Under the pieces are notes generated by a model that did not search any database, was not told the DNA's origin, and was given only the letters and a program-made list of their open reading frames with translations. This document shows positions 1-43,512 of a stretch of DNA of 64,000 bases, piece by piece; position 1 is the first letter of the stretch; each line of letters begins with the position of its first letter. The translations under genes and the position numbers were made by a program. This DNA is from Paraspadella gotoi (Eukaryota > Animalia > Chaetognatha). The DNA lies in assembly GCA_051294375.1 (NCBI GenBank), contig CM119263.1, positions 6,425,645 to 6,489,644 of the forward strand, written 5' to 3'.

Positions 1-662
1 ATCTAAACATAATATTAAGACATAATCTAAAACATATTGCATCCGATACTTATTTTCTACAAAATTTCTGAGCGAAGTTTGTTGATGGTACAAAATAATA
101 TATAATTGACCATCAATAATCCAAAATATAGAAAAATATTTCTTGAACAAGGGGGGGAAGATAAATAAATGTAAAGTATTCACATAGTTTGCTTGTTATT
201 ATTTGGATAAAAAAAACCATCGTAGTTATCAAACCATTCCTTTTTTCGGATTTTGACAAAAAAATAACTAAAATGTTAGTGAATCAAAAATCGCAGTTAT
301 GTAGATTACAAAACCGTTGATATTATTTTTAATTTAAATCTGCATCGAGAAGGAATAAAATTCTATCGGTGACGGTTTCTCATTCAGATTAATAAGAAAT
401 TCAAATTTCAATCCTTGACTTTTTGTTTGAAATTGAGTGACTGATTATAACCTAAGTTCGACTTCGTGAGTTTGAAAACAAAACCACAATAGTACTTGGC
501 TAGCGTTATATAACATAACATATGCCAATATAGATCTTCAAAGTTTGGTTTGGTTTTGCTTTAGATAGAAAAAATAATTGCAAAAAACAGAATTTAGTTC
601 AAAATTTTCTATTGAAGAGACAGTAATTATTTTTGAGTTAGTGATAGAACCGTTCAATATAA

Positions 663-739
663 GCAGTCCCTGAGCTTCGGATCAGGCTGTAACAACATGT
701 TACAGGCGGGGTTAAGCGCCCCCGTCCTCTTATAACTGC
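663..739 (-). ncRNA. Type-P5 twister ribozyme candidate in the 3' LTR
   Basis: Near-identical to 1107-1179 and 4647-4720 apart from small indels. Confidence 0.7.
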
Positions 740-1106
740 CAGACGACCACCGGGGTAGAACCCCGGACCTTTGGGTTGGGAGCGCGAATGACTTGCCTCC
801 GGCACAATGGCCGCTGAGTATGAACGGTTGGTGGAGTTTTAGTCCACCATACATCCCCCCCTCCCGGTAGGGAAGATGTTTCTTGCGTCTCTTCAATGAA
901 TTGTTGTTGCTGGTGGAAAGGTGCGTTCACCAAGTTGCAGGCATGATACGCCTGATGTGTTGTGGGGCGGAAGTGCCATCGCCAGGTTGAGGCATGTCGC
1001 CTGATAATGTTTGTTGTGTTTGCTGTTGTGTTCCGGAGTCGGGCATCAACCAATGAAGAGGACAGTAATTATTGTTTATAGTTAGTGATAGAACCGTTCA
1101 ATATAA

Positions 1107-1179
1107 GCAGTCCCTGAGCTCGGATCAGGCTGTAACACCATGTTACAGGCGGGTTAAGCGCCCCGTCCCTCTTAACTGC
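1107..1179 (-). ncRNA. Type-P5 twister ribozyme candidate in the 5' LTR
   Basis: Same fold as 4647-4720, with one base missing in loop L4 (possible read error). Confidence 0.7.
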
Positions 1180-1350
1180 CAGGACGACACCGGGCTAGAA
1201 CCCCGACCTTTGGGTTTGGGAAGGCGAATGACTTTTGCCTCCGGCACCAATGGCCGCTGATGAACGGTTGGTGGGTTTTAGTCCACCATACTATTTCTGA
1301 TTAACATACTGATTCGATATGAATTTAAAAATGGTAACGTTTATTTACAG

Positions 1351-1446
1351 GCTGCCCTTCGCTGTACTAGATCCTCACTATGGATGTAGATGTACACACA
1401 ACTTGGACTTTTTACAAAGGCTTTCACCTCAATATTGTTCGTTGCA
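1351..1446 (+). CDS. Exon of the PKD1-like gene encoding part of a WSC domain
   Basis: tttacag|...|gtaagt. Reads LPFAVLDPHYGCRCTHNLDFLQRLSPQYCSL and joins in phase to the 5061 exon (QCTQ...GGSNVAFNIYHV), giving WSC-like CxC...C...C...GG..Y spacing. Confidence 0.7.
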
Positions 1447-4400
1447 GTAAGTAATACAAAATCAAATTCATCTATTAGTATCTAAGATAAATTTGTTATT
1501 TGGCACGTATTGTAAACAATTTTAAATAAAAATATTCTTAACCTGCGTAATAAATATATTCTTTATGATACAGCACCGAATTTATTGATTAAGAAGTTCT
1601 TGTGCTTTTTGGTCAAGGGCGTAGCGGAAAGTTTCCACATTAACCTTACCTTGCCCAGAAATCTTCTCTGCATTCTCCCAAATTTTATGGAAGGATTCCT
1701 CATTTATATTTATTACCGGAGAAAATATTTTTTTTATTTCTTCTTTCGATCTTGATTGAAAAAAGTCTTTTTCAAAAACCCCTTTTTGAGCATAGATGGA
1801 TGGATGGACTATTCCATAAGCATTTGTTTGGTCTCCGTAGTTCGTTGTGTCAGAAATTCTCCTTAACCTCGGGGCAGCTTTATCGCATCTAATAGTAGGA
1901 ATTCCATACCTTCGCCATTCTCTTGTATCGTTTTTTTCAGATCCTCCAATTACCGATTTTATTTTCATTGCAGAAGTTTTATAGTTGCCGATAGCCTTAT
2001 CAATACTTTTTGGTATATTTGGTAATTTTTCCAATTCCTGTCCTGGCTTTCCGCTTGGAAGATAATCCTTCCAGTTAAGATAGTTGACAAATGCTAGGAA
2101 GCTTATTTTACCATTTGTATCTCCGCCGCACTGTTTTACTAACTCGTTTAGCAATTCTTCTTCTAGTGTAAATCCAGCTCTGCTGCAAGCTTCCGCTAAT
2201 TCGGACTTTTCAATGAAGCCATTCTTATTCCTATCGTAATCGTTGAATGCTTGCCACAGCGTTCGATATTGTTGATAATTAATCTTCTTCATCTGGTGCT
2301 GCACAATCGCAACTGAGCCTCGTGCTCGATCTTTACCTCTCATAGTTTTTGATTCCTTTGTCTGGTTAGATTGAACGCGGCCATGAATAACATCACCTGC
2401 TCCATAGGGATCTGGCTTGATGAGTATGCCGAATGTGTGATCTTTAGGCAAGTGTTCGATCGTAAGTTTTAGCGGATCATGGACCGACGATATCTGATGT
2501 TGACTTCTCTCCCTGTAATCATCCACCCGTTTGCTAACGAGCGGAGCCGCTCTCCGAGCTGCGGTTTCCGTCAGCCAGATCATGCTTCGTTTGATGTTGC
2601 GTCCGGCGTTGTCATGAGGAGTCGGTTTTCCCCGAATTTCCTGGGAATCGAAGTTGACGTCGTACACTCGGTGCTTCTGCTCTCCCACGAAATAACTGTT
2701 GTGACTCTTTACATATAGTCTGTGGCCTGAGACATGATTGGCGTCTATCTCCGTCGGATCTAGTTCCGGATTGACGAGCGCTTTGGCGCCGATATCCTTA
2801 AGACTTTTAACTCCGAAAGTTGTAGATAAAAGGTTTACTCCTTCGGGAAGACCCGGTCCCTGGTCGTGGGAGGAACCCAGAGGTGCTCTCCTTACTGAAT
2901 CATAAACAGATTCGTCCCTTTGCCTTTGGTGGTTGGAAAATTTTGAAAGCGGCGCCGGATTGACGACGGCTCCAGCTGCTTGAGACGATTTCGTGGAAAC
3001 TCCGTGACGCAATGCTTCAAAGGTGCGCGTTCGGTCATAGTCGTCTGCGACGCCATAAAAGACCCGTCTTTCCGATGGAGCAGGTCGCAACGTCAACCGG
3101 AACTTTTTAACTGCAGCAGGTGACGTCGGCCTCGGAACGTGGTTGTCGGGCTGGATGCAGGGATCGACCCTTTCACCAGGATTGATAAGAATGCCGGCCG
3201 CGCGTTCATCGGGGTTGCGATCTCTGAAGTACCCTTCGTAAATTCGGCTGAATTTTGTTGCCGTTGACATTTTTAAGATGATATTCAAGAAAAAAACGTC
3301 TCTAGTTGCTGAAAATTTTTGTAAACGTTTTATGACTTTTTTAGTTCTCTAGTTTTGTCTGGTTGGACTTAGAACTAGTAACTCTGGTTACGTTTTCTAT
3401 CGTTGCCAAGCGTTGCTATGAAAATCAGCTGATAAATAGGTTATTGACGCATGCGAACTAGCTCGATGAAAAGTTTTTCTCATTAATCCCAATTTTTGAT
3501 TCTTGAAGACGAACTGTCTTAGCACATGTGATACGTATTACGTATGGTAAATTGAGTGTTCGTAGGATAGAGGCAAGAGTACTGTCACTGACAGTGTCAG
3601 ACTGATTTATCTTTTCAAAAAACAAAAGATAGATTCTGAGTTTTTCTTTCATAATTTTTACTCATTCTGAAGTTGTGTTATTCTGTTAGTCTAATAGTTA
3701 CATATATAATATATTATTAATGCAAAGCATGATTTTAACCAAAACCAAAAGTTTTTCTTTAAAAAATTTCGGTAGCCTAGATTTAATCATGCATACTGCA
3801 TAGAATATGTAATTGAGCTGCGTCAAAATAGCAATCATTATATATTCAAGAAATACTGCCATATACAGTTATTGATTGTAATCTTGATCGTTACTATGTA
3901 GTATGTAAGGTATTACTTTCAACACACCATCTTTGGTTAGATTATACGTTCGAAAACGTGAAGGCAACTAAAAATGACGTCAACAAGAACAAAAATATCT
4001 AAAAGGTTGCAAAAAATGTTCAAAAGAAGCGTCGGGCAATACCAATTGTTGTGACTCGAAAACCAGAATTTGGAGAAAAATTCGAGGCATGTTTTTAGGG
4101 AGAGAAGAAATACGTATATTTATAAAATTGGTACAACCAATATAAAAATTATACCATTCATTTAATAAATAAGCTATCTTGCCCCTGACTTTGGACAGTA
4201 AGGCCTAGTGAAAGTTGCAGATCAAAATAGTAAAAAACATTTTAAAATTTTAGCATTTTCTATGGTGAGTACTATGTATAAATATGGGCGCATGCGAAAA
4301 TTAAAAAAAAATTTTTTTTATTTAAAAATGTTCACAGGTACAAGCCTGTTCATGATCTATTATTCGAATTTTGATTCTACTTGATTTTAATATTTTTGCT

Positions 4401-7400
4401 ACGCTTTATTGGACAGGCTTTAGTGGTTTAAGGCCTCCATCATTCTTACAAGATAATGACATAGCAGTTCCCTGCAAGCTCTCAATCAAGATTCACTCAG
4501 TCTTGTTTATTCACACCCAAAGTACTTGATATCTCTATCAAGGATGTGTATATTACCAAAAACAGAGAAAAAACAAAAACAGTAAATATCACAATGAAGA
4601 GACAGTAATTATTGTTAAGTGTTAATGACAGAACCGTTCAATTAAAGCAGTCCCTGAGCTTCGGATCAGGCTGTAACACCATGTTACAGGCGGGTTAAGC
4701 GCCCCGTCCCTCTTAACTGCCAGGCGACCACCGGGCTAGAACCCGGGACCTTTGGGTTGGGAAGGCGAATGACTTTTCCTCCGGCACCAATGGCCGCTGA
4801 TGAACGGTTGGTGGACTTTCGTCCACCATAACAACAACAAAAACCACGAATTTACATTAGCTGAAAAGGTCAGCCATAACAAGTTCATTCATGGTCGAAT
4901 ATAACCGGATCATTCTTCGTCATGTCGTCGTCGTCAAATCAAAATACATTCAATTAAATATACTTTCGAAATAGAATTTTCTTTTTTATTGACTTAGTAT
5001 GCTGATTGTTTGATGCTTGTTAAAAGAACTTTTTGGCGAAACCTTTCCGAATTCTTGCAGATGCACGCAGTCTTCGCCTCCTTTGTTCTCCCAACTTCTG
5101 GGGGAATCGGCGGAAGAGACTCTCCCTCGGAGTCCCCCGGCGGTTCTTCCTTTCGGGGGATCAAACGTCGCCTTCAACATCTATCACGTGAGGGGACCTT
5201 TCATCAGAGATATGCAGCTCACCGCAGGGCCTCACTACATCGTCGAAGGCGACGAGGTTCCGTTCGAAGCGCAGATCAACCTAGAATCCATGAAAAACCT
5301 GGGTAAGTTCTAGTTATTTGCGAGTTTTTTGTTGCAACTCACTTTTCGGTTGGTAGGTAGGTCTGTCCGTTAATTTTTTTTTATATGTTCATATTGATTA
5401 ATATTATGAAAATTTGCAAAATTACTAATATTATATAATTTTCGATAACATTTGGTAAAAAGGTTAAATACTAGGAAATCCTCAATGTTTGTATATTTTA
5501 TACATATATGCAGACATTGAAAATGAGCTTACTTGTAACAAACCAAGGTAATGATATATGCGAAAAGAAAAATAACCGACAGGCTCGGTTCCAGTCGGCG
5601 AAAGTCAAATAGTTCCTCATAATTTTTTAAATATTTAGTTAATATAATTAATATTTTGCGAGGTGTTATTAAATGCTGTTTGAGCATGTTAAATATTTGT
5701 AAATATTTATAATTTATATTTATATTGTAATAATTATATATATGTTTTATACTTAAATGAATATAGTGACGTATTTATCGGGAAAGGCTTGTCAATGCGG
5801 TAACACACTGAAATTGCGGTTTTGTGTTTTTCTTAATTATCGATCCAACACGATGTTACGTAATTTTGGGGAGACAATTCGGCCGGATTCTAAAAAATTA
5901 GGTATTAAGGTATTATCACAAAACACGACCCAAACTCTAAAATCAAAGTCAAGCCAAAGTCTATCTTATTTCCTCGTTTTTCTATTCGATATCTGAATTA
6001 CCCGGATTGTGTTTCAATAACAATTTGTGATTTTTCTTTCTTAGGAATTGGTTTAAATGATTCCCTGGTAAAAATTTTGACGTTTGATTGGTCGATAGCG
6101 AACAACGTCTCCCAAGAAAGAGTTAACGTTTCTCCGACTGGCTTGGCCTCCTCAGTCAGGGTCCAAACCTTTCACAAGCGGGGAATTTATCCAATAGGTA
6201 TATATTTCTAATTTTGTCGCATCTAGACTTGATGCATTTACCAGTTTTTTACTTCTTTTTTTTGGTTCCGATTCCATCTGCGATGGTATAGTACTTTGTC
6301 TGATTTGTAGTTTAAATTTAAATTACTTACAGCGGTGGTCGTTTCAAACGCCATCTCTTTCGGAGCAATCGCTGACAACATTACCGTCCGCTCGCCCGCT
6401 CCCTATGATCTTCAAATTCGGCAGTCGTCGGAATCTACTCCGCCATCTTGCTTTCTATATGGGGATGGGTGAGCCCTTAATTATTTTGTTTTTTTAAATT
6501 AAATGAAAGGAGAATGCCTCATGGTGATTTGCCATTAAAAATTTTAATAAAATTGAGGTAATAAATTTTAACTTTCAAGTTAAATAGAATTACTAAGAAA
6601 AAATAAATTGAGAGCCGACCGAAATTTTAAGTCATATTCAGTATCAGCCAAAGTTAGAAACAGTTTCGTATATTAGTGAGTAGCATTTTTAAGATTATCA
6701 ACATTACGAACACATTAAAACATCGCTCCTGAAAGTACATTTTAAAAAAACCTTTAAAAAAAAAACGCAGGAACAATGCAGAAGAAAAACTTGAAATCTA
6801 AGAGAGCGAGAAAAATGTTTTTCTTCTGTGATCCCCTTTGTTATGTAAATTTAATCCGGTTCGTTATTTGCTCATTTCAGCAGAAATTTTCAGTTTTCAC
6901 TATTTACTTCCCCGGCCTCCACCCACTCGCCCCTTTATCTTGTCCCATAAAGATAAACCGATGCCATACCTCGCCCTGGCACTGGCTTTGCTGCCCCTTT
7001 CTCTTTTTTTCCTCATTGCTTCTTCTTCCTTTTAATATTTTTCTTCTATTCTCTTCTTAATTTTCCCCCTCTATTTTTCTTTTATTTCCTCTTCCTTTCT
7101 TCTCCTTTCTTTCTTTTTTCTTCCTTTCTTCTCCTCTGTTATCGTATTTCTTTTCCCTTTTACTATGTTTTCTTTTCTTCCTCCTTTGTGCTGGATCGAG
7201 GATTAAACGTTTTCAATGTTGAAGATAGACCAAAGTGTTTTCGCATTAGCATCGGATAGCAAAGACTACGCATAATTACTTATGTAGATGGTGAAGTATA
7301 TTTCGTAAAGTAGTGCTTTGGCTTTGTCTTGTTTATCGCATTAGCAAGTATAATTTGTTAAAAATATTTTTTATGGTAAATATAACGTATATAAAATAAT

Positions 7401-15800: not shown

Positions 15801-18800
15801 TTTGACACGCGGTTCCCCTGCTATGCCCCCCTTTTTTTATCTTCCTTTTTTGGACAAAAATAGGTCGTTACCAGATTCGTCTCGCCGCTTTGAATTCTGT
15901 ATCGCGCGCAGAGACACGTCACTCTGTGCGGGTGATGCACCCAGTGCGCGTGCTCGATCTCGCCGCGAGATCGCCTCTGGTCGGGGTCGACTGCGTTTTG
16001 GAGGTCATTGTTCAGGGACAGGTGGGTTCCATGTTTGGTGGTGTGTTGGTTGGCCATCGACAGTGGTGACTTTTTAAGTGCAAATTTCTAGTATTTATGC
16101 TGATATGCTTTTAATAATGAATGATAACAATTTTATTTTAAAATAGGATGAAATTACTTTTTCTACCAATTATTTAAAATAGTTAACTGCTCTAAATCCA
16201 CAGACCCCTCTGGATTTACTGGTGGACTGGGGTGACGGCGGCACTCCGTACTCTTTCCACCTGAACGCCTCGCACCCTTCCCTGCGTCGCTTCCTTCGCA
16301 ACGGCGTCAACCCGCGTCTCCACGTCGAAGCGCCGCAAATCCTCGGCTTCGAGGACGTTTTTAGGAGGGTTTATTCCAGAGGTCAGCCACCGAGGCAGGA
16401 GTTGGTTAGGGAGGTGGGGGGTTTGACTCGGGTAGGGGGATGACTTTGGTGGCTGGCAACCAAGATGTCTGTCGCGTCAGGCTTCAAAGAAGTTTAATGA
16501 AATATCTAAATATATAAACATTGTACATAAATGAGTCCTTTATATTTTCGGGATAAGTATGTATGTTAGACCTTGCCATATATGAAAAGTTTTGAAATCA
16601 AAAAACGGTATTGTGTAAAAGGTGCCCATACATCATATGAAATTTTTGAACATTTTTTTTCAAAAAAAAATTTACAGTAAATGCTGCCAACTTTGAAAAA
16701 AAAAAAAAAAATGGTAAAAAATGGACTTTTTGCTAAATATCTTTAAAAGCTTTATTGCTAGAGGAACGAAACCCAAAACTATCTTGTAGAGTGGAAAAAA
16801 TTGATATGTTACATACTCGTATTATAAATTAAGTTAGTTTTTTACTAAGGAAAATTTTTTTAAAACCTATTGTTTTTGGTCAATTTTTGATAAAATTTTT
16901 AAAAAATGATATTTTTAACAATGTTTGTGAAATATTTTGTAAAAAAAAATTATGGCGAATTGAATAAAGAAATAATTGCCTTTGTTTTGCTGAAAGAATT
17001 TTTAAAAAAGGATTATCGGTAAAAAGTTATAATTTTTTTAAATTTAAAAAAAATCACTTTTCTTAATAATTATTTTTATTTAATAGGTTTGAACTGGCTA
17101 AAGGGAAAAAGGGAATGCACTTTTTTCAGAGTAAATAAAAAAATAGTAAATTCTGATTTGACAATAGGTAACTTTAATATTTTGTCTCACCAAGGTCATT
17201 AAAGTTTTTTTTAAATTTTTATTATTTTATAATGGAATTATGACTTTAAATAAGGTGAGTTTTTTTAATTTTTTTCTATATAAAAGAAAAAGAAAAAATT
17301 GACAAAAGCGATTAAAATATTAAAAATTGATAAATGAGACAAAAAGAGTAAAATTAATGAAAGTATAAATAACTGAGAAAAGAGTTGCTTGCTGCTTGCC
17401 AGTCCGAGAAAAAAAGGTATAGTGCCAAAGAAAGAAAAACTATTATTCAATTCTCATACGGTCCGCCTCGCCACGAAATGCCCCTTTGTTCGCGCTAAGT
17501 CGATAGATGCGCGTTTATCAGAAGTAAGAAAAAACGAACAAAATAACATCGAAAGATGCAAAAAAAGAAAAACCAGGAAATGCCGTCCACGTGACGGCCC
17601 TGACCAATGGGAGCCCGGCAAATCCGCAAGCCGGCTTCTCTCCCTCCATCCGGCATACGGAAGCCTCAATTCTTTTTCGCGCTCATCTAGTTTCGGTTGG
17701 TTTCTTATGATTTCCGCGTTTTTTTTTCTTGACTTTTTTCAACAGATTTTCTCGTATATCAACGTTCGAAACCCCGCTCATTAGAAAGTCAAGTAGAGAC
17801 GAACGTTCGGACAAGAAGTCCACAGCCGAAAACGTTCGGACAATGTCCTCTAAAGTAGAGAGGGCTGGAGATCCCTCGGGCTCGAGAGGTCCAAGAGAAG
17901 ACCGAGCGGTCCTCTGCCCCCGCCGCCACATGCCCCACCGCACCCGCCTTACTCCCCCCTTTTAACCGTGGTTTTTCGGCAGCGTGCACCCGTTCCATCG
18001 GTTTTGGGACTCGGCCCGCGTACCAACCGACAATTTTCCGTTGCCGCGCCGAGCGGTGGGGCCTTTGTCCGAGGCGCCCTCTCTCGCTTGCTCTCGACCA
18101 AGTGGCGGCCGGTCTGGTCATCCCCCACTGCCGGATGACGTGAACCACAGGAATGGAGTCCTGTCCTTACGACGATGGTTTCGTCACTGAACAGCTTTAG
18201 GAAGGATTCGACGAATTTCGCCGAGTCTGCAGCGCGTTTCGACGCTTTGGGGCGGTGGTTTTTCCCGCCAAGATGGCGTAAGTGGGGGTTTTTAGTATTC
18301 GTTTTTTCAAACGCCTCGCCTCCCTCTTTTTGTTTCTCCTTTAATTTCTTTCTTTCTTTTTTCGAATTATTCATTTTTGAAATTTTTAGGAAAATTTTTA
18401 TTTCGGGTCTGATTCGATCGAAATATTTTTTGTTGAAATAACCAGCTTTCCTCGCCTCTTGGCATGGGGCATTTCGTGGCGAGGCGGACCGATATGAGAA
18501 TTTTTAATTCCTTTATGGAATATTAATTCTATATCGGTCCGCTCGCCACGACCCACCCGCGCCTCTTTTGTCTCCTAACCATGTTTTTTCGTGGCCTTTT
18601 GGCGTGGCCTTAGGGAAGGGGTTGGGGAAAGGGAGGGGGGGGGTTCGGTGAGTTTTTTTTCTGTTTAATTCTCGCGCTAATTTGGCTTACACGCTTACGT
18701 TTTTTAAGCATGTGGACGATTCAATATCGGTCCGGTTTTGCTCGTCCACTACGCTTCGCCTCGTTGAACGAGTCTCGAATGTCCTTCCATGCTGTCCGTA

Positions 18801-21800: not shown

Positions 21801-24800
21801 CGGTTTTCTGTGCGAGAAGGATCTCGTACAGCACGATCACCTCAACAGGTGGCCATATCAGCTGCTCTCCCCCTGGCGGGAGCGCGGTTTGGAGAGCATC
21901 TTTTGGTTCCGGCGCCTTCTCAAGGGAAGTTTTTCGAAGAGACGCCCCCTCAAACGTCGGAATTTCCGCCACGTGGAATGGCGGTCTCGGTTTCACGCAT
22001 TCTCGACTCGGCGCACTCCCGATCGCGCGAGGGGATCTTCTTACGACGCTCGCTCTTTTCTCGTCACGCTTTTTAGCGTCAGTCGTCGCCCTTCAGAGAT
22101 CGTCTCTCTTCGTTGCGACGAGGGCTATCTTTCCTTAGCGGCAAGTTCACGTTCGTCTGTTCCAATCGACACTCTAGAGGACGGACAGGGTCCGGAACAC
22201 ATGGGTCCCGGCGTTCCGTCTCGATTCGCTGCGCCAGATCGCTGCCCGGTTCAGGCCCGCTGCGCCAATTGACTCTTTTCGTTCGGAATTAGGCGCCGCC
22301 ACGATTTTCTTTTTCTGCGCTCCCGCGCCGCCTCTCGCAACTCTCGACGCAGCGTTCGCCTCCCTTTTCAAGGACACTTTTTCTTAGGAGCGGACGTTTC
22401 CTGCGGCCCCGGGCCGACGCGCGCTAATGGCGGTCTCGGACGCCCTTGCCGCGGAATGGAATCTTGGCGTCTTCCTTCGCGCGGGAGATTGGTCATGGCG
22501 CGCCGAACCTATTCTTCCGTTTCCACTGCAGGGACGTCGCGTGAGCGCCCCTCCGGGATCTTCTAGGGACGTTTGAAGCTTCCCGATGCCGGATGAGGGA
22601 GAAGAGCCGCTTGGGGGGATTTGCCGGGCTCCCATTGGTCAGGGGCCCGGTTCACGTGACGCATTCGCTGGTTTTTTTCTTTTTTGCATCTTTCGATGTT
22701 ATTTGTTCGTTTTTTCTTAACTCTGATAAACGCGCGATCTATCGACTAGCGCGAACAAAAGGGCAATTTCGTGGCGAGGCGGACCGATATAGAATTAATA
22801 TTCCAATAAAGGAATTAAAAATTTTTTGTTAATCTATTCATGATTTATAGTTAATAATTAAGTCTATTGTAAATAGTCCGATTTAGTTTTGAAAATTTAT
22901 TTTAATCATCTTTGATTTTTATTCAATTTTCATATCTTTTATAGTTGATGAATTTATCAACAAGTTGGAATCTATTCTTAAATTTAATCAAAAGCAAGCT
23001 TAATATATTTTTTCAATCTTTTAACAACTTTTGATTAAGCAATATATTTTAACACAAATATAATTTCAACTCAATTCTTGGAGAACCACGCTCTTGGACA
23101 AAGGTAATTTTGAAAAAAAAAACGAATAACTAGTTTTCTCTTCCCTTTGCGCCACTCTACGATGATGACTTTTTTTTCCTCCGAATACGGTAAAACAGGC
23201 AAGCACACCTCCCCTTCTCCTCAGCACCCCTGCTATCTTCCTTTTGTCTCATTTTATCAATTTTTAATCATTTAATCGCATTTTTCGTTAATTTTTCTTT
23301 TCTTTTATATAGAAAAAAAATTAACAAAACTACCATTATTAAAACCCATAATTCCATATAAACAATGATAAAAAGTTCAAAAAAACTTTAATGACCGTAG
23401 TGAGGACAAAATAATTAAAGTTACCCCATTGTCAAATAAGAATTTACTATTTTATTTATTTACTCTGAAAAAAGTGCATTCCCTTTTTCCCTTTAAGCCC
23501 TAGTTTCAAACCTATTAAATAAAAATAATTTTAAGAAAATCGATTTTTTAATATTTAAAAAAAAATTAATAAACTTTTGAAACCGATAATCCTTTTTTTA
23601 ACAAATTTCTTTCAAGCAAAACCAAAGGCAATTATTTCTTTATCTTCAATCGCCATAATTTTTTTAACAAAATATCTTCACAAACAATATGTTAAAAATT
23701 ATATTTTTAAATATATTACTAATAAAAATTGCCCAACATAGGTTTTAAAAAAAATTTTCCTTAAGTAAAAAACTAACTAATCTTATAATGCGAGGTATGT
23801 AACATAGTCAATTTTTTCCACTCTACAAGATAGTTTGGGTTTCGTCCCTCTAGCAATAAAGCTTTTAAAAGTATATTTAGCGAAAAAGTCCATTTTTTAA
23901 CCATTTTTTTTCTCCATTTTTTCAAAGGTTGGCAGCCATTTACTGTAAAATTTTTTTTTGAAAAAAAAATGTTCAAAAAAATTCTATGATGTAGGGCACC
24001 TCTTTACAAATATCCTCGTTTTTTTGATTTCAAAACTTTTTCATATATGGCAAGGTCTAATGTATGTAAATTATTTTTAAAGACGAAGCATAAGTCGGCC
24101 TTTTATTTAATCCTTACCCGGCAACGGTGATCCGCCTGGGCGGTTCGCCAAGTAACTCCCGATGCCAGGGACGAGGGAGCCAAGTTTCGGTCACGCCCGA
24201 GCTCGCGCCAAATCTGGCAACAAGCGATAAATCCCCGTTTAACGTTGGCGCTGATCTTATTCCTTCATTTCCCGGGAGAACGAGTTTTCGGGAGGCGGCG
24301 TCGCGATTTTCGATTCCAAATGAGCGAAAACAGAAGCCGAATTTGTAGTGAAAATATTTCTCCGTTTTGGGTGGGGGGGTGTTGGAAATTGTTTCGGTAA
24401 TTTCTACGACATAAATTCCAAAATCTTATTACTTATTACCTTACACGATATTTTTTAATGAACGTATTTTATATCCTAATTTTCAGTCGGACACTACACC
24501 GTGACAGTCAACGCCTCAAACCCGGTTTCGAGCCACGGTCTTTCTGTCACTATCTACGTTGACGAACGCATCGACGAAATAAGGTTGACGCCCTTGTCAC
24601 CCTACGTTCTTGTCATCGGATCCGGCGTCAACGGCGCCGCGGCGCGAGTCAGGGTCGACGTCGCCTCAGGATCCAACCTTACCTTCGGGTGGGATTTTGG
24701 CGACGGCGCCGGCTATAGAACACAGCAGGAGGACGGGTGAGTTTTGCTTGGAAGTTTTGAAGGCTTTAGAGCGGATTTGCGTTAGAGGAAACAAGATGAG

Positions 24801-30495: not shown

Positions 30496-31282
30496 ACGTC
30501 TAAACACCCAGGGACGTACACGCTCAAACTCACGAGCTTTCCCCTTCTGCTCAAGGATGAAAAAGGGGAAAAGAAGGCTAGTTGAAAAAAGAAAGTGAAA
30601 GTCGGAAATGTCAAGGATGAATTTATGTATGTCGTAGAGAAAGATCGTTGCGAAGAAAGGGTGCATGTACATAAAGACTCGCTCTTAACCGCCTTTATCC
30701 CCCCCTCTCTCACTTTCTTTTTGGAAAGGAGCTTTCTTCCGTTCCATGCCATTCGCCTTTCAGTCACGACTCAATGAGTCATAGTTGATGACTAATTCAG
30801 TACTCCTAACTCTCCCCTTCCCCCCCCCCACGCACTCCAATATTCCCTCAGTGTTTTGGCGAAAGTGACGGCCTGGAACAAACTGGGTCAGGCAGTCTCG
30901 TCTCACGTCGCCCTCACTCTCTTCGACCCTGTGGAGGTGGTGTCGGTCGTGGGCTCCCCCACTTCGGCCCCGGGACAAGCCACCCGGTTCGAGGTGAGGT
31001 TCTGGCGCGGCACCCGCGTCAGCTGCCTCTGGGACTTTGGCGACGGTTCCCAGCCCGTCTTCGCGCCCGCGTGTGAATCCGGACACGTCCGCGCTCATCG
31101 CTACGAAAGTGCTGCTGTCCCGTCCGTTCCATCGATTTTTTTTTTCGCTCGCTCTCGCCTTAATTAGAGGAAGAGAATGTGGAGGTTTTTAGCCTAAGGG
31201 TCGGGGGTTTGTGTTAGAAAGAGAAATTTCCTCTACCGATTTAGTTTTTTTGAAAAAAAGATTTCACCCCTATTTATATTAG

Positions 31283-31324
<42 letters not shown>

Positions 31325-32100
31325 TTTCTAGATAATACTACTCACTATTTTCTTTTTGTTTAGAAAGCAATTTTTTTCTGCGCGTCTTTCTTTTTTTTTT
31401 TTAACTTTTCTCTCTTCCTTATTCCATTCATCGCCCCTTCCGGCCTCTTCCGTTGTTTGAACAGCGGAGGGAAGTTCGACGTTTTCGTGAGCGTCAACAA
31501 TTCGTTGTCGTCGTCGCGCGCGTCCGTCGTCCATTTCGTCGTCGGTTACGATTGTCAACCTCCGCGGTGGAAATCGACTCTCCTTCGTGCCGTTGCCCGG
31601 CCACGATGCCGGCTTCGGCGTCGTTCTCTGCAACCTCAAATTGACGCCGAAGCAACCAGTCTGGATCGAACCCAGGGTGAGTCGCTTAAACATAGTCCCC
31701 TTTGTTTTACTTTCTTTGCTCTTCGATGTTTGCGATGTATTACAGATGGATGAGATTAGATCTGTTTGTTTTAAAAATTCTCTGTATTCGATCTTTCTTT
31801 TTTGTTTGTGTGTTTAAGGAGTGTAACGAAAAATTCGTTTTGAACAACAATTTTAAACAGTTTCTCAGGACATGTTTCGACTCTGTTTCGAGTCTTCATC
31901 AGCAAGTGAAAATATTAGAGTCAGTTATCTCAAACATCAGTTTTGGAGAGAGAGAGAGAGAGAGAGTAAGAGAGAGAAAAAAAAAGAAAAAGAGTTTCCA
32001 ACAAAGAATTGAGTGAGGGATAGTGGTCAGATGTGAGGACAGGTGAAGGTAAAGGCAGGAAGAAGAGAGTGAGTGAATTGAAAATTGGAAAAATTGGTGA

Positions 32101-32147
<47 letters not shown>

Positions 32148-35100
32148 AAAGATGAATCAATACATTAGGCAATGTACAACATGATAAAATTAGAAGGAAT
32201 ACTAAATGTATAACAATAATTAATAAGTTAGTTATTGACTGAGTTTGAAATTGAAGTAAGACATAGAGTCGAAACAAATTGTTGTTCAAAAAAGAATTTT
32301 CGTTACACTCCTTTAAAAAAAATTCTCTGTAAATAGTTTCCTCTTTTCGTCGTTCAATTATTTTGTAGCCGCTCGATTTCATTAATTTTTTCCTCTTTCC
32401 CAACCAAGTGAAAGTCTCATGCGCGAAGACCCCAACAGTTCGTCACCGGTGGAGCGTGTGGAGGTTCGAGGACGGTGAGCGAACCAAAAGCGTACGGTTG
32501 GAGGATGGTCTTGTCACAAATTTGGATCATCGCAGTATTTATCTGCCGGAAGGAAGCCTCGACGTCGGTCATTACGTCTGGACGTTCACGTAAGCTTATA
32601 AGTTTTGCTTCGATTTCTAATGTCTATGCTGCTTTGTACTTAATTTTTTATTAGTTTCTGACTTTTTTAATAACTTCAATTGCACTGTGTGAAATCGAGG
32701 TATCCATGAACGGCACGATTCTCGAGGCAAACGCATCTTGCAAAGTGGACATCACCGATGAGCCTCTCAAGCTTTTTGTGGATGGCGGATCCTTCAAGCA
32801 AGTTTTCGTCTCGGAAGCGGTCGTTGTCAACTCTCGCATTAATCGAAAGTCGTTGGAAGGTTCGCGAGACTAAGTTAATTTACAAAGTAGTGGGAACCGC
32901 TAACCCCTTTTTGATTAACTGTAACTTACCTTCCAGGAATCGCCTTGGCCTGGGATTGTTATCCTCTCGATGGCTTCGGGAAACCCTGTTTTCCTCAGCT
33001 CTGTGCCGCTTCCAACCAACGTCACCTCTGTCTCCGTTCCGGCGTCGTCGTTCGACGTCTCCAACGGCGCCGCCTTCGTCTTCAACTTGACGGCGACCAC
33101 TGCCGGCGCCAACGCTTCCGTCGATCAAGTCATCCAGATCGTCGATCGCGGTTGTTGAGGTCAGTTGTTGTTGTAGTTTTGAAATGGGCTGAAATTGCCT
33201 GATGACTAAATTTTAATTTTTGTTATAATTATGTGAAAATTATTCACTAACCTATTTTTCTGTCTCCCTGACAGCCTCGCGTGGGAATGCGATCAATGTC
33301 GATCCGGGCGCGTCAACTCGAAACGAGCGACTTTACCTGCGAGCCCTTTGCAACGGAGCTATTTGTGATCGTGGTGCGGTTGAGTTGAAGTGGTCGCTAA
33401 GTCTGGTATTGGACGCGATCGCAACAGGATTTCAACGGTGAGTAGGCGTCGTAGTTTCCTTTGCTTTGCAATAGGTTTTGCAAGAATACAGAATGTAGTC
33501 CATCGATATTCGTTGATGTATTTTAAGGTCCTGTCCAGAAGCGAACCTCTATTTTTGGTACATATCCTTTGTTAGTCTCCCATGTTTGGTTTTTTGTTTA
33601 CTAGGAAACAGATTTTAATTATTCTCGGTGTCATTTTGTCACCTTCCTTTCTAATGAGTCTAAAAGAGTCCGTCCTCGCAGACACAAGAAAAGAAGAGCC
33701 CAAGTTTTGTTTAAAATGGAAACAGAAATGGAAAAAATACGTGATCCGCCTCCTATGCACTCGTTGCTTCTTTTCTTTCTAATCGCTATAGGGCCTCAAT
33801 CAGTTAGTTTTCCTGAGCATCTGTTTTTTTCCATATGATATGATGAAAGATTAAGAGCATTTTCATGTAGCAATTATTGTTTTAAAATAAAAATTATTAA
33901 TAACTTCATCGGCGGAAACTAAAATGGGCTAAATTTTAAAAGGTGAAAGTTTATGATAATATGATGAAACTTGAAGCTTTCCTGAAAAACACAAAAAGTC
34001 TTCAAATTTTTGTTCACTTTGTCTCACGACTTTTTCTTTCCTTTTGTTTCTCCCGTCGCTGGGAATTGTTTTAATGTTTGGTCGGCGAGAAAGAAGAAGG
34101 AAATGAATTCCCGCCAAGGAATCGTGTTTTTTAGCGCCAAACCAACGTTTTCCAAGTCAAGGTGAAAAGTAAGCCTTGGAGGCTTTTCCTCTCTTGCGTA
34201 CGTGCTGCCACAAAAATGACGAGACCGCCGGACCGCCGTCCATTATACGACGGACGAACCCCCTGTTTACCGACTTTACCGTCGATGTTTGCCAATCCTA
34301 TCACTCGGGGTTCCTCTCTTTATTTCGGATAATTTTTTTTCATGTACGACTGAAAATGCGCGTTCGTGATAGTTTTAATTCTTGCTAATGACGATTTTAA
34401 AGTAACCGTTACAATTTAAATGCCGTAATTTCGTTTATTTTAAAATAAAAAAGTTTTTTAATTGCTATTCGCTAACGGAGGTCGTTTTCTTTTTATGAGT
34501 TGTCCTGCGGGGAAGGAAGAAGCAATTATTGATTTTCTTTGCTGCTCAGCCGATTCCACGCCGATTCCACGCTGATTAAGGCTGAAATAGAGCAAATCCT
34601 CTGAGAGTGGAAGGAGCAAGAAAAATCGATGCTCTCAGAAAATATTAGGAAAATGTACGATCAAACGAAACTCGTACGGAACGTGGCAGAAAAATAACAT
34701 TCACTCTCAGTTTAGACTTTTCTTACCTAAACAATGATAACAATCATAGAGGAGGGAAACACTGAATTGATCTAAAGAAAAATAGACAGTTTTCTGAAGC
34801 ATGCTTTATTTCAAAAAAATATTTGTATTCAACGCACCACTTGAAGTTGAAAGATTCTTTTTTCTGGAAAACTCCGCTACGGAAAAATCCAGAAATCTTG
34901 CTCTTTTTGACATTTAACGACCGAGGGTCGTTTTTGTCCAGTTTTATTCGAACAACATCGAAAACGTGCGCAGATTTCGTATATAGTTTTGCGAAAATGA
35001 AGAAGTATAAGCTACATTGTGACCATTTAAAACCCGTCGCTAGAAAAAAATTCACCATACGAAAAAGTGTAAAGATTTTAATATTTTGACAAAAAGATAC

Positions 35101-36414
35101 TAGAAGACAAAACCGATACATTTTTATGTATAGATATCATGTCCTTCGGCATAACTTTTACTTAAAAAGTGAGAGGTAAATGATGGGCTTGAAAAATTTC
35201 TCCTCGCTCGATCCTCAATGCTTTTAAATTGAAAAAAATTCTTACTTTCGCGGACGATTTATGAAAAAGTCTTGAAAATTAGCAATCATATTGATTTTGC
35301 CTTAAAGCCCTTAAAAAATTGTATACTATGATATATTTTTTAATTCTGTAGCATAAAAAATATTTTCTTAACAAGGCTCTCTTATGATACTATATTATTA
35401 CATTATTATTACAGATTAATTTTTTACCAAGCCATAAATTCCAGGTGACGAATTTCCTTTTATTCTTATTGAAAAGCTCGAATTTACTCCTATCTTTTTA
35501 CAAAACAAAATCAATTATAAAGAAATTTATACATAATGTATGCCTCATGTCTTTATCTATATAATAAAAATTTTGAGTTCAACCGAATTTCAAATGTTAT
35601 TAAAACCTCCGCTAACTATTCTAATCTCGTCTCATGCCCAAAATTGAGGGAAAGTTGTTGTTGCGACGTCGTTTCCCGGTACATCCATCCATTATTTAGC
35701 GATCTTTATCAACTTTTCATGTTTTTCTCGTCGGCAACTATTTTCCTCCGGTACGTGAGGGTGCGCGCTATCACGCGACGACGTGACGCGGTCGCTGGAA
35801 CGTCACGTGAAAGGTCAGTGTCGCGCGCGCGTAACGCGCCTCGTCCTCGTCGACGTCCCTTGTCTCTCCATCCAGTTTTTTCTCCGCCTCTTCGTGTTTA
35901 ACGTCTCCGCAACGAAAGGGCTTCTTTCACTTTTCTCTACTTTACCTTTCTTAATTATTCCTTACTCGGAATGGAGGCATTGACTTTAATTGTAATTTTA
36001 TTTTTTTTTTATTTAACCTCATAAAGTTTTTTTTCAACGTACTTTTCCTCTTCAAAATTTTTTTATGAATGTTTTATCCACTTCATAATTACAAACACAA
36101 AAAAGTTTTATGATTTTTAATATGAACTTTCAGACTTATTTTGTCCGTTGAAGCGGATGAGAAAACGAGCTGCACCGAAATATTTGCCACTTCTGATTTA
36201 AAAACGCCTTTCTCTTCACGCCAGAATTCTCATTTAGCGACCTCGAACGAGATATATATATATGAAATTGGTACAACCAATAATAAAAATTATCCATTCA
36301 TTTAATAAATAAGCTATCTTGCCCCTGACTTTGGACAGGCTTTGGTGGTTTAAGGCCTCCATCACTCTTACAAGATAATGTCATAGCAGGTCCTGCAAGC
36401 TTTCAATTCCAAGA

Positions 36415-36456
<42 letters not shown>

Positions 36457-38267
36457 GAGAGAGAGAGAGAGAAAGAGAGACAGCGTGCGAGATATAGAGC
36501 GGGCTCCTTCATTCCCTGAGTCGGGCGGGTGTGGAAGAGGATGAAAGGGGATACTTCACTCCTTTTTTTCTGGGTGGTTGAGAACTTCCAAGGATGAACC
36601 GATCGAGTCAGCTTCTTTAACGTGTTAAAACTCGAAATGATTTATTGTGTGGAAAAATACTTGTATGGCTTCCGACCATCCTTTTCTGATTGATGGGTCT
36701 CTTTTAACTCACTTCCTTTTCCACTACAACTCCGATTTGGCATAAGTGGGGAATTTTTTTTTCCTGTTTTCCTGTTAATCAGCTTTAAAATTACTCTTAA
36801 CTTGATAAATTTTTTTATCAAGTTTCTAACATATTAGAAACTTGAAACTGAAACGAAAAAAAATAAATTCACAAGATTTTTGTTGTATTTTTTCTTGTTT
36901 AATTTGATTTAAAACCTTTGGTTAAAATTTCTATCTTCACCATCTGCGTTTAATTTCCTCTTTGGGAGTTTCTTCGCCTCGTTCCTCTCAATCCACGAAG
37001 GCATCATAAGCATTGACTCTGAATTCTCGCCCCTCGAACAGAAACTTTCCGCTCAAACTAAGGATTGCGATCGAATGGCAAAAAAAAAAGAAATAAAAAT
37101 TAAAAAAAAAACACTTTCTTTTCGATGCGTTTACTGCTCAACACTGACTTGTTTATTCCGACTAACAAAAGAAAAATATAACTCGATTTAAAAAAAAAAA
37201 CTGATGTAAAAAAAGCACGGAAGTAATTCAATTGTATAGTGCCGAGAAGAAAAACCATCGTTCGGACTTCGCCAAACAAATTAAAATTCGGCTCATATCA
37301 CGTCTTTAAAGTGGCGATTTGGATTTATGAGAGCATGGTTGAATCAGCTTAAAAAAACTATATTTATTTTTGTTCTTATAATTCTCTTCTCTTTTTCTCT
37401 CTCTCTCTCTCTCTGCAAACGTCTAAACACCCAGGGACGTACACGCTCAAACTCACGAGCTTTCCCCCTTCTGCTCAAGGATGAAAAAGGGGAAAAGAAG
37501 GCTAGTTGAAAAAAGAAAGTGAAAGTCGGAAATGTCAAGGATGAATTTATGTATGTCGTAGAGAAAGATCGTTGCGAAGAAAGGGTTGCATGTACATAAA
37601 GACTCGCTCTTAACCGCCTTTATCCCCCCCCNNNNNNNNNNNNNNNNNNNNNNNNNNNNNNNNNNNNNNNNNNNNNNNNNNNNNNNNNNNNNNNNNNNNN
37701 NNNNNNNNNNNNNNNNNNNNNNNNNNNNNNNNNNNNNNNNNNNNNNNNNNNNNNNNNNNNNNNNNNNNNNNNNNNNNNNNNNNNNNNNNNNNNNNNNNNN
37801 NNNNNNNNNNNNNNNNNNNNCAATATTCCCTCAGTGTTTTGGCGAAAGTGACGGCCTGGAACAAACTGGGTCAGGCAGTCTCGTCTCACGTCGCCCTCAC
37901 TCTCTTCGACCCTGTGGAGGTGGTGTCGGTCGTGGGCTCCCCCACTTCGGCCCCGGGACAAGCCACCCGGTTCGAGGTGAGGTTCTGGCGCGGCACCCGC
38001 GTCAGCTGCCTCTGGGACTTTGGCGACGGTTCCCAGCCCGTCTTCGCGCCCGCGTGTGAATCCGGACACGTCCGCGCTCATCGCTACGAAAGGTGCTGCT
38101 GTCCCGTCCGTTCCATCGATTTTTTTTTCGCTCGCTCTCGCCTTAATTAGAGGAAGAGAATGTTGGAGGTTTTTAGCCTAAGGGTCGGGGGTTTGTGTTA
38201 GAAAGAGAAATTTCCTCTACCGATTTAGTTTTTTTGAAAAAAAGATTTCACCCCTATTTATATTTAG

Positions 38268-38312
<45 letters not shown>

Positions 38313-39120
38313 TTTCTAGATAATACTACTCACTATTTTCTTTTTGTTTAGAAAGCAATTTTTTTCTGCGGTCTTTCTTTTTTTTTTTTAACTTTTTCTC
38401 TCTTCCTTATTCCATTCATCGCCCCCTTCCGGCCTCTTCCGTTGTTTGAACAGCGGAGGGAAGTTCGACGTTTTCGTGAGCGTCAACAATTCGTTGTCGT
38501 CGTCGCGCGCGTCCGTCGTCCATTTCGTCGTCGGTTACGATTGTCAACCTCCGCGGGTGGAAATCGACTCTCCTTCGGTGCCGTTGCCCGGCCACGATGC
38601 CGGCTTCGGCGTCGTTCTCTGCAACCTCAAATTGACGCCGAAGCAACCAGTCTGGATCGAACCCAGGGTGAGTCGCTTAAACATAGTCCCCTTTGTTTTA
38701 CTTTCTTTGCTCTTCGATGTTTGCGATGTATTACAGATGGATGAGATTGATATCTGTTTGTTTTAAAAAATTCTCTGTATTCGATCTTTCTTTTTGTTGT
38801 TTGTGTGTTTAAGGAGTGTAACGAAAAATTCGTTTTTGAACAACAATTTGTTAAACAGTTTCTCAGGACATGTTTCGACTCTGTTTCGAGTCTTCATCAG
38901 CAAGTGAAAGAGAACATATAAGAATGCGCAGGATTTTATTCGTAAAACATCAGTTTTGGAGAGAGAGAGAGAGAGAGAGAGAGTAAGAGAGAGAAAAAAA
39001 GAAAAGAGTTTCCAACAAAGAATTGAGTGAGGGATAGTGGTCAGATGTGAGGACAGGTGAAGGTAAAGGCAGGGAAGAAGAGAGTGAGTGAATTTGAAAA
39101 TTGGAAAAATTGTGAAGAGA

Positions 39121-39151
<31 letters not shown>

Positions 39152-42100: not shown

Positions 42101-43436
42101 TTTTGACAAAAAGATACTAGAAGACAAAACCGATACATTTTTTATGTATAGATATCATGTCCTTCGGCATACTTTTACTTAAAAAGTGAGAGGTAAATGA
42201 TGGCTTGAAAAATTATCTCCTCGCTCGATCGCTCAATGCTTTTAAATGAAAAAAAATTCTTACTTTCCGGACGATTTATGAAAAAGTCTTGAAAATTAGC
42301 AATCATATTGATTTTGCCTTAAAGCCCTTAAAAAATTGTATACTATGATATATTTTTAATTCTGTAGCATAAAAAATATTTTCTTAACAAGGCTTTCTTA
42401 TGATACCTATATTATTACATTATTATTACAGATTAATTTTTTACCAGAGCCATAAATTCCAGGTGACGAATTTCCTTTTATTCTTATTGAAAAGCTCGAA
42501 TTTACTCCTATCTTTTTACAAAACAAAATCAATTATAAAGAAATTTATACATAATGTATGCCTCATGTCTTTATCTATATAATAAAATTTTGAGTTCAAC
42601 CGAATTTCAAATGGTTATTAAAACCTCCGCTAACTATTCTAATCTCGTCTCATGCCCAAAATTGAGGAAAGTTGTTGTTGCGACGTCCGTTTCCCGGTAC
42701 ATCCATCCATTATTTAGCGATCTTTATCAACTTTTCATGTTTTTCTCGTCGGCAACAATTTTCCTCCGGTACGTGAGGGTGCGCGCTATCACGCGACGAC
42801 GTGACGCGGTCGCTGGGAACGTCACGTGAAAGGTCACGTGTCGCGCCGCGTAACGCGCCTCGTCCTCGTCGACGTCCCTTGTCTCTCCATCCCAGTTTTT
42901 TCTCCGCCTCTCGTGTTTAACGTCTCCGCAACGAAAGGGCTTCTTTCACTTTTCTCTACTTTACCCTTTTCTTATTCATTCCTTACTCGGGAATGGAGGC
43001 ATTGACTTGTAATTTGTAATTTTAATTTTTTTTTATTTAACCTTCATAAAGTTTTTTTTCAACGTACTTTTCCTCTTCAAAATTTTTTTATGAATGTTTT
43101 ATCCTACTTCATAATTCAAAACCAAAAAAAGTTTTATGATTTTTAATATGACTTTCAGACTTATTTTGTCCGTTGAAGCGATGAGAAACGAGCTGCACCG
43201 TAATATTTGCCACTTCTGAATTTAAAAACGCCTTTCTCTTCACGCCAGAATTCTCATTTAGCGACCTCGAACGAGATATATATATATGAAATTGGTACAA
43301 CCAATATAAAAATTATCCATTCATTTAATAAATAAGCTATCTTGCCCCTGACTTTGGACAGGCTTTGGTGGTTTAAGGCCTCCATCACTCTTACAAGATA
43401 ATGTCATAGCAGGTCCCTGCAAGCTTTCAATCAAGA

Positions 43437-43512
<76 letters not shown>

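Follow-up and report, generated by a model that had tools for sequence, protein, structure and literature searches.

A putative type-P5 twister beside a tRNA-like promoter module in the LTRs of a non-coding retroelement of the chaetognath Paraspadella gotoi, a candidate animal LTR retrozyme

[quoted passage not shown] The question is raised by a 678-bp element at positions 613-1290 of a 64,000-nucleotide stretch of the genome of Paraspadella gotoi (Chaetognatha; assembly GCA_051294375.1, contig CM119263.1, positions 6,425,645 to 6,489,644 of the forward strand), hereafter the window. Here, we describe this element as a high-copy, non-coding terminal-repeat retrotransposon in miniature (TRIM) of the Helenus type that, with a tRNA-like promoter module and a type-P5 twister fold in each LTR, probably works as an animal LTR retrozyme.

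The element, whose sense strand is the minus strand (Table 1), is non-coding, its longest ATG-started frame spanning 66 codons, and is bounded by direct repeats of 239 bp (copy A) and 237 bp (copy B) that are 89.5% identical by BLAST. [quoted passage not shown] In the family form, as read from loose ends of contigs from public DNA runs, the PBS agrees in 13 of 14 positions with the one for tRNA-Trp given for Gypsy-32_NVi and Helenus-2_SyJa. The terminal hairpin, outer stem and 74-nt tRNA-like module reported by the same annotation reappear in the fold of copy C, an intact solo LTR of the element's own family (family 1), with 9 bp in the outer stem and a 7-bp acceptor-like stem in the module (z = -3.1; pair probabilities). 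Between copies A and B we count 5 substitutions and 16 indel events, and 11 of the latter are of homopolymer type. A 6.6-kb stretch that is duplicated in another part of the window shows the same kind of difference between its halves, with 137 indels (101 of homopolymer type) against 28 substitutions. From these indel-dominated, homopolymer-rich differences we infer that the window assembly is noisy long-read sequence; copies A and B are therefore probably about 98% alike in truth and stem from a young insertion. Their single-base defects, which resemble assembly noise, may not be real. The L4 base absent from copy B (place 1119) is present in public contigs, 68 in run X1 and 44 in run X7.

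Table 1. Features of the element, its relatives and its neighbourhood, in window coordinates.
Feature	Position	Strand	Remarks
Left TSD, 4 bp, CTAT	609-612		same letters as 1291-1294
Right TSD, 4 bp, CTAT	1291-1294		same letters as 609-612
3' LTR, copy A	613-851	-	termini TA...CA
Twister-like fold, type-P5, copy A	662-740	-	cut predicted 714/713; family covariance model 85.9 bits; indels disturb P2 as assembled
tRNA-like module, copy A	741-814	-	A box 807-796, B box 762-752; ARAGORN -ps90 call
PPT adjoining 3' LTR	852-865	-	read from sequence; side poorly covered by public contigs
Internal region, 202 bp, non-coding	852-1053	-	
PBS adjoining 5' LTR	1038-1053	-	window copy has two letters more than family form
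5' LTR, copy B	1054-1290	-	terminal hairpin ~1288-1270; 9-bp outer stem 1269-1261 with 1100-1092
Twister-like fold, type-P5, copy B	1106-1180	-	catalytic-G position 1167; P1 linker 1162-1157; cut predicted 1156/1155; one L4 A absent as assembled
tRNA-like module, copy B, predicted Pol III promoter	1184-1257	-	A box 1249-1238, B box 1202-1192
Predicted monomer, 442 nt, between the two predicted cut sites	714-1155	-	fold z = -4.0
EF-hand domain family member B gene, intronless	1582-3348	-	between element and solo LTR C
Copy C, solo LTR of family 1	4595-4830	-	own 4-bp TSD; intact twister 4646-4721, cut predicted 4697/4696; empty site in one DNA run
Family D, diverged solo LTR	44789-45063	+	tRNA-like boxes and twister fold, general-acid A changed; E-value 3.5e-9; ends uncertain by 1 nt
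Family E, diverged solo LTR	47932-48188	+	exact 4-bp TSD; perfect A/B boxes; twister 48055-48136 with 4-bp P2; 8-nt self-complementary linker
Repeat family R	43283-43444	-	twister 43339-43399 without P3, without tRNA head; Rfam Twister-P5 25.8 bits, E-value 4.6e-4
Further family R copies	~36250-36427, 45333-45447, 54101-54213, 4114-4499	-	the first a duplicate of the 43283-43444 locus; the last split by an insertion

The fold that follows the tRNA-like module was compared, in copy C, with the twister domains drawn from the first table of Liu 2021 (PMC8501958) and from a structural review (PMC5408937). It matches them in the cut triplet, the catalytic G-A, L4, P3, P4, P5, the 3-bp and 2-bp pseudoknots T1 and T2 and the type-P5 order. 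It departs from them in three features: P2 has 3 bp and one bulged A, P4 has 5 bp, and P1 gives way to a linker of 6 nt. A covariance model built from copies C and B alone, pseudoknots excluded, matches in the window family D at 44905 (E-value 3.6e-7), family R at 36316 and 43339 (2.4e-6; counted once because both sit in the duplicated stretch) and at 45387, and family E at 48055 (1.3e-4); its matches at 42818, 35799, 29626, 56472 and 45821 (E-values 0.04-3.7) lack the core and were set aside as chance. The 8 model matches give 7 distinct rows, in which both partners change in 19 of 27 pairs, across P2-P5 and both pseudoknots, and pairing holds in 94% of alignment cells, against 27-41% with partners slid. 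Because these rows are related and the nested helices guided the alignment, shuffle counts should not be read as probabilities. T1 and T2 had no part in that fit, and in each of them one pair changes (C-G to U-A in R for T1, G-C to A-U in D and R for T2); C, D, E and the R copies at 43339 and 36316 have every pair of both. Copies A, B and C and families E and R retain the catalytic G of L1 and the AA after the cut; in D, A1 is altered. Only E has a 4-bp P2, that of families 1 and R consisting of 3 bp and one bulged A. A relaxed descriptor, with P2 and P4 loosened, matches only copy C and two R copies, with no match in 562 window shuffles or in 164,335 LTR shuffles. In Rfam, the best match of family R is Twister-P5 (25.8 bits against a gathering score of 37.6, thus sub-threshold) and family E matches twister-P1 (18.8 bits, E-value 0.057, gathering score 67.2, thus also sub-threshold).

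We regard it as highly probable that the fold is a true twister homologue, and likely that its intact copies cleave. According to McKinley 2024 (PMC11662667), as far as that account bears on the point, P1 is dispensable in twisters and flaws in P1, P2 and P4 were tolerated in the natural type-P1 twisters tested; changes in the pseudoknots or the general acid were not. By this rule cleavage is to be expected of C, E and R but not of D, whose twister is probably dead because its general-acid A is changed.

Several points weigh against this assignment. Five Rfam scans of family 1, including truncation-allowing sub-windows, gave no twister match at E-values up to 10 and only unrelated matches at chance level; the search with the Rfam twister-P5 model, which the initial annotation had named as a check, thus came out negative for this family, perhaps because the Rfam Twister-P5 consensus has no P3, and the matches of both sister families lie below the gathering scores. 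P4 is 5 bp long and closed by A-U, not the near-invariant G-C, and the review cited above (PMC5408937) allows, in the part that concerns P2, that a change of its length might disturb the active site. A strict descriptor with a 4-bp P2 has zero matches in the window, the relaxed one was written after families 1 and R had been inspected, and copies A and B fail even the latter as assembled, B being short of one L4 A and A having indels in P2. The covariation comes from four related families in an alignment fitted to the proposed structure. In family D, the cut site reads UCA, one P2 pair is broken and a run of five T lies within the LTR at 45031. In the nested minimum-energy fold the cut site does not lie in P2 but is taken up by a rival hairpin, the nested twister fold lying 9.5 kcal/mol higher (-19.5 vs -29.0, pseudoknots uncounted). 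In family contigs of public runs, variants of at least 5% within the twister of copy C fall at 4662, 4681, 4682, 4701, 4706 and 4721, of which those at 4662 (13%) and 4706 (7% in X1) could each disrupt a T1 pair; the catalytic G, the cut-site AA and T2 have no such variants. Of the twister that the initial annotation had placed in the LTRs, the type-P5 fold stands, through the four-family covariation and the sub-threshold Twister-P5 match of R; the two copies within the element are both damaged as assembled.

Such departures could mean that the twister is a passenger or relic, captured by a Helenus-type LTR from another repeat, for example family R, and now inactive or irrelevant to transposition. 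The short P2, the abnormal P1, the altered P4 closure and the missing Rfam match of family 1 fit this, as do the loss of the general-acid A in D and the presence of the fold in R, for which neither a tRNA head nor an LTR structure could be demonstrated. It is made distinctly improbable by the compensatory changes in all six helices among otherwise diverged families, by the constant position of the twister after the B box in three LTR families and by the lack, in family contigs, of variants of at least 5% at the catalytic positions. Family R itself is about 160 bp long and combines a P3-less type-P5 twister with a perfectly palindromic linker; two of its copies are truncated at the 5' side and have a common 3' end, so R is perhaps not an LTR element. 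Hammerheads were also sought in family 1 by the Rfam scans, with no match. Two other candidates, tried by eye, were rejected: a 5S rRNA origin of the P4/L4 hairpin (no Rfam match, and D alters the letters and keeps P4) and an HDV-like ribozyme on the plus strand (no Rfam match). A register with the upstream GAGGG as L1 was also rejected, since P2 and one pair of T1 would then stay open and D, E and R do not conserve it.

For the module that precedes the twister, a decayed tRNA-type promoter is the best reading, with predicted activity. In family 1, ARAGORN at default settings called no tRNA, nor did Rfam at E-values up to 10. The A and B boxes of copies B and C have one mismatch each and lie 46-47 nt apart; equally good box pairs occur in 8 of 1500 shuffles for B, 12 for C, 43 for D, 0 for E and 74 for A. 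At a 90% threshold ARAGORN calls copy A (and 1 of 1000 shuffles), and at 80% it calls copy C, yet also 87 of 1000 shuffles. The boxes occupy an equal place in all three LTR families (1, D and E), perfect in E, and D and E share with family 1 the order of terminal hairpin, A and B boxes and then twister. For D, a 4-bp agreement of the flanks appears only when the register is shifted. LTR E, whose ends read TG...TA on the twister strand, the opposite of family 1, is with its perfect boxes and full 4-bp P2 the cleanest sequence in which to look for cleavage. Families 1 and D also have in common, in the middle of the module (4786-4755 on the minus strand and 44840-44880 on the plus strand), a GGAGG/CCTCC hairpin with a variable loop, followed by a conserved 13-nt run; this does not resemble the D arm or anticodon arm of an ordinary tRNA and may have a function of its own as a second element.

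From these parts a course of replication can be proposed. Pol III would start in the tRNA module of the 5' LTR at about 1257 and meet no stop before 604: the minus strand contains no run of four T from 1290 to 605, and the first, at 604, already lies in the flank, in agreement with the initial annotation, which had noted that none occurs between the two predicted cut sites, 442 nt apart. Both twisters would cut, probably as a pair via their P1 linkers, and release the 442-nt RNA, which a tRNA ligase such as RtcB would close, closure being needed because the cut monomer has no terminal R repeat; the ligated junction would read exactly like the LTR in the genome. In a two-strand fold the halves of a cut LTR remain paired via the outer stem, P5 and the rival hairpin, which would hold the ends together and may stop the circle from being cut again. 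A tRNA-Trp would then prime reverse transcription round the circle, rebuilding two LTRs, and an integrase would insert the DNA with a 4-bp TSD. The copying would fall to a Gypsy-type element, proposed because of the PBS and the 4-bp TSD; none was found in the window, where a Pfam scan of 9 of the 12 other frames of at least 200 codons matched no family. In the animal retrozymes described in PMC7229834, RtcB circularises the RNA and dimeric hammerheads have been shown, and for the LTRs of plant retrozymes PMC4918200 gives a ribozyme predicted in a blocked fold. On balance, our analysis leans slightly towards a circular intermediate.

The absence of a run of four T from the element, and from LTR E as well, would also fit a course in which an active twister only makes the 3' end, replacing the Pol III terminator, with the 5' LTR held in the rival hairpin, which does dominate the nested fold. 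The RNA would then be linear, run from about 1257 to 714, have a terminal repeat of about 100 nt and be reverse-transcribed as in a TRIM or Cassandra, with no circle and, thanks to its R repeats, no ligase; many Helenus LTRs show a T run after the tRNA part in the sequences consulted from the supplement of PMC10886601. However, both LTRs have the same sequence and nothing obvious limits cutting to one of them, a P1 duplex between them would activate both sites, and the ribozyme pairs of plant LTR retrozymes give circles in the accounts of PMC4918200 and PMC7761336, and we consider the linear course unlikely. The run of five T in D, for its part, means that the no-terminator argument fails to cover all families.

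That the circular course would begin with paired cutting is suggested by the linker, which the initial annotation had overlooked and which points to dimeric cleavage. In all four families P1 is replaced by a linker of 6-8 nt; no P1 closed by a loop is present, and the linker permits 1-2 cis pairs at most. Of 10 copies from the four families, 9 have a linker that can pair with itself over its full length, one extra leading G being set aside in copy A and in D, with differing letters and a duplex energy of -6.3 to -10.9 kcal/mol; by chance, 3.5% of 6-mers and 0.9% of 8-mers are self-complementary. The outer pairs fit a one-pair cis stem, and the central pairs, impossible in cis, are Watson-Crick in every family, a pattern for which the chance is 0.004 by rough estimate. 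The axolotl hammerhead described in PMC7229834 has a one-pair helix III and a palindromic tetraloop and is active as a dimer. The self-complementary linkers suggest that the two LTRs are cut as a dimer, and the case for a P1 formed between them is evenly balanced. Against it, a nested model of the real transcript gives the LTR-to-LTR linker duplex a probability of 0, because the rival hairpin, 9.5 kcal/mol stabler, takes those bases. A stronger version, in which the twister is an obligate dimer whose P1 forms only between the LTRs of one transcript, so that cutting strikes the two ends at once and spares all but full-length elements, and the RNA then refolds into an inactive form and offers its ends to RtcB, would make this the first Pol III-driven group of LTR retrozymes in animals and the first built on a twister; we put it forward tentatively and consider it rather doubtful.

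The family is abundant in public DNA runs, whose contigs were aligned to copy C and to the element; their summed depth is not a copy number. In run X1, 11,889 contigs match copy C, and the summed depth over most LTR bins is 1.3-4.8 million, against 134-327 in the left flank of copy C, a contrast that suggests a family of thousands of copies. The LTR ends sharply: exactly at 4595, contigs of X1 (161), X3 (163) and X9 (42) pass into unrelated sequence, with an agreement of 0.41-0.42 in X1 and X3, and comparable sets do so at 4830/4831. The empty site of copy C is seen in one X1 contig, where 4590 is joined to 4831 and 4 letters overlap, and this insertion is still polymorphic. By its depth profile and unrelated flanks X9 looks like DNA; an RNA nature is only a guess, and no expression reading is drawn from it. 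Runs X10 and X11, with only 1-2 pieces of low depth, were left out of any reading of host range.

The two-LTR form is less well represented, and here the data tell against the proposed course. The element at 613-1290 is the only two-LTR copy seen, and its internal region has deep coverage only at 947-1041; the part from 852 to 946, PPT included, has a depth of 0-930 in X1 and zero in X7, so that for the family as a whole an LTR-internal-LTR form is putative. The gap at 928-946 in aligned contigs proves nothing alone. The mobile unit might thus be mainly a single LTR, copied from a circular template and integrated directly, with the two-LTR form rare or incidental: of the four loci in the window that combine tRNA boxes and twister, three are solo LTRs whose flanks match over 4 bp, the insertion of solo C still varies, the LTR is covered more than ten times as deeply as the internal region, and LTR-only complementary DNAs from circles were proposed by Cervera 2016 in the account of plant retrozymes (PMC4918200). 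Yet recombination between LTRs also makes solo LTRs, in Helenus, as described in PMC10886601, LTRs outnumber internal parts, the low internal depth perhaps comes from divergence or assembly errors of the window copy, and contig loose ends show the PBS beside the LTR in further copies of the family. Of the alternatives to a two-LTR retrozyme, we hold this one to be very improbable.

The surroundings of the element hold other repeats and one identified gene. The element lies about 290 bp past the stop codon of the EF-hand protein B gene, on the same strand; the named relatives of that protein are animal proteins, with 45% identity to sea urchin and 60% to two environmental proteins, which marks the host as an animal. 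A quick tree of this protein, built on 44 of 109 sequences, placed it on a long branch next to vertebrates, with unstarred support. At 4200-4408, an insertion of about 210 bp splits a family R copy and is flanked by 8-bp duplications, by eye as in a hAT-type miniature inverted-repeat transposable element. The 6.6-kb tandem duplication (30838-37380 and 37821-44413, 96.8% identity) may be an assembly duplicate of one locus. Long inverted repeats at 16566-17669 and 22573-24060, about 86% identical, enclose a GC-rich 5-kb stretch in which four frames of 214-356 codons had no Pfam family match; the whole is possibly a large terminal-inverted-repeat element. No tandem arrays were found in positions 1-6000.

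Among known systems, the element is closest to Helenus/TRIMp3 (Kojima 2024, PMC10886601), and the tRNA-in-LTR design is already known, as the element meets the definition of Helenus. As set out in that paper, Helenus elements are non-coding TRIMs of 311-1263 bp, a range that includes 678 bp, with tRNA-derived A and B boxes in each LTR, a PBS, a PPT and many solo LTRs, and animal Helenus has a 4-bp TSD, as have the element, solo C and solo E. The PBS is of the tRNA-Trp type, as in Helenus-2_SyJa (PMC10886601). Unlike the Helenus elements presented there, the window element has TA...CA termini and more decayed boxes, its LTR lacks a T run, and the B box is followed by a twister fold. The text of that paper, in the parts consulted, mentions no ribozyme, and a search of its supplement sequences for the L4-type and terminal motifs gave no twister context, although line breaks can mask matches. 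In two LTRs of gall wasps in that supplement, Helenus-2_SyJa-LTR and Helenus-2_SyUm-LTR, an apparent type III hammerhead core, unmentioned by the author in the parts consulted, is visible by eye 3' of the B box, together with a tRNA-Trp PBS; these would seem to be a hidden precedent for the combination of tRNA, ribozyme and LTR in an animal.

Plant LTR retrozymes, as described in PMC4918200 and PMC7761336, likewise have a ribozyme in each LTR, a PBS, a PPT, a 4-bp TSD, no coding capacity, a blocked ribozyme fold and a proposed mobilisation by Gypsy elements via a circle. They differ in their type III hammerheads, tRNA-Met PBS and circles of 600-1000 nt, in that no tRNA-derived promoter is described in those accounts, and in that their circles were shown by experiment and are only predicted here. 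The element likely works like an LTR retrozyme, yet has a twister-like fold where that group has a hammerhead. Cassandra TRIMs also have the Pol III promoter of a small-RNA gene inside their LTRs (PMC7215508, PMC10886601), but it is 5S rRNA-derived, and the elements belong to plants, have LTR terminators and carry no ribozyme in the description of PMC7215508.

With the type-P5 twister (RF02684), as characterized in PMC5408937 and PMC11662667, the fold shares the U^AA cut, the GA and the three T1 bases, the GC of T2, L4, P4 and the closure of P5, both pseudoknots being fully paired in C; it is unlike it in the 3-bp P2 with a bulged A (4 bp only in family E), the 5-bp P4, the long P3 and the self-complementary 6-8-nt linker for P1. 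In the Schistosoma Perere-3/RTE T-variants of Liu 2021 (PMC8501958), a twister with a similar start of P3 and a similar L4 also sits in an animal retroelement, but the element is a non-LTR one, the twister is of type-P1 order and makes, with a single cut, the 5' end at which it sits, without LTR, PBS or tRNA head in that account. The SINE-like (short interspersed nuclear element) hammerhead repeats of Schistosoma have a Pol III promoter and then a ribozyme (PMC6765202), and animal non-LTR retrozymes offer dimer-dependent cleavage via a palindromic mini-helix, circularisation by RtcB and monomers of 170-400 nt. Both groups differ from the element in their type I hammerheads, tandem repeats, link to Penelope-like elements and lack of LTR, PBS, PPT and 4-bp TSD, so far as the sources describe them (PMC7229834, PMC6765202, bioRxiv 10.64898/2026.07.22.740005).

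What is new, as far as the sequence can tell, is a type-P5 twister fold in an LTR and its junction with a tRNA module. The initial annotation's claim of novelty holds in that no tRNA, twister and LTR combination in an animal was found in the open-access literature searched; it needs narrowing in that tRNA-bearing animal LTRs with 4-bp TSDs are known as Helenus (PMC10886601) and a Pol III promoter joined to a ribozyme is known from Schistosoma (PMC6765202), as those papers report them. In the same literature no twister-bearing LTR element and no dimeric twister were found, twisters being tied only to RTE non-LTR elements and LTR retrozymes having hammerheads only, mainly in plants; pattern scans of metagenome contigs gave 0 matches. 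Thousands of twisters are known, and the sole eukaryotic role assigned to them in the literature found is 5'-end formation of RTE elements. P3-containing type-P5 twisters escape Rfam, and more of them are probably hidden in animal genomes. If the reading proposed here is true, it would offer an answer to how Pol III TRIMs define their RNA ends, supply a case of a dimeric twister and show LTR retrozymes at work in animals and with another class of ribozyme than the hammerhead. On the stronger, obligate-dimer version, the element would be a natural counterpart of the engineered twister-RtcB circle makers, of which the twister-based Tornado system is one. Tandem twisters have been used to make RNA circles in mammalian cells, as recounted in PMC7229834. 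Taken together with the Helenus-2 LTRs of gall wasps, that stronger version, if true, would further mean that Pol III TRIMs have repeatedly gained different ribozymes for their RNA ends, a twister in the chaetognath and an apparent hammerhead in the wasps.

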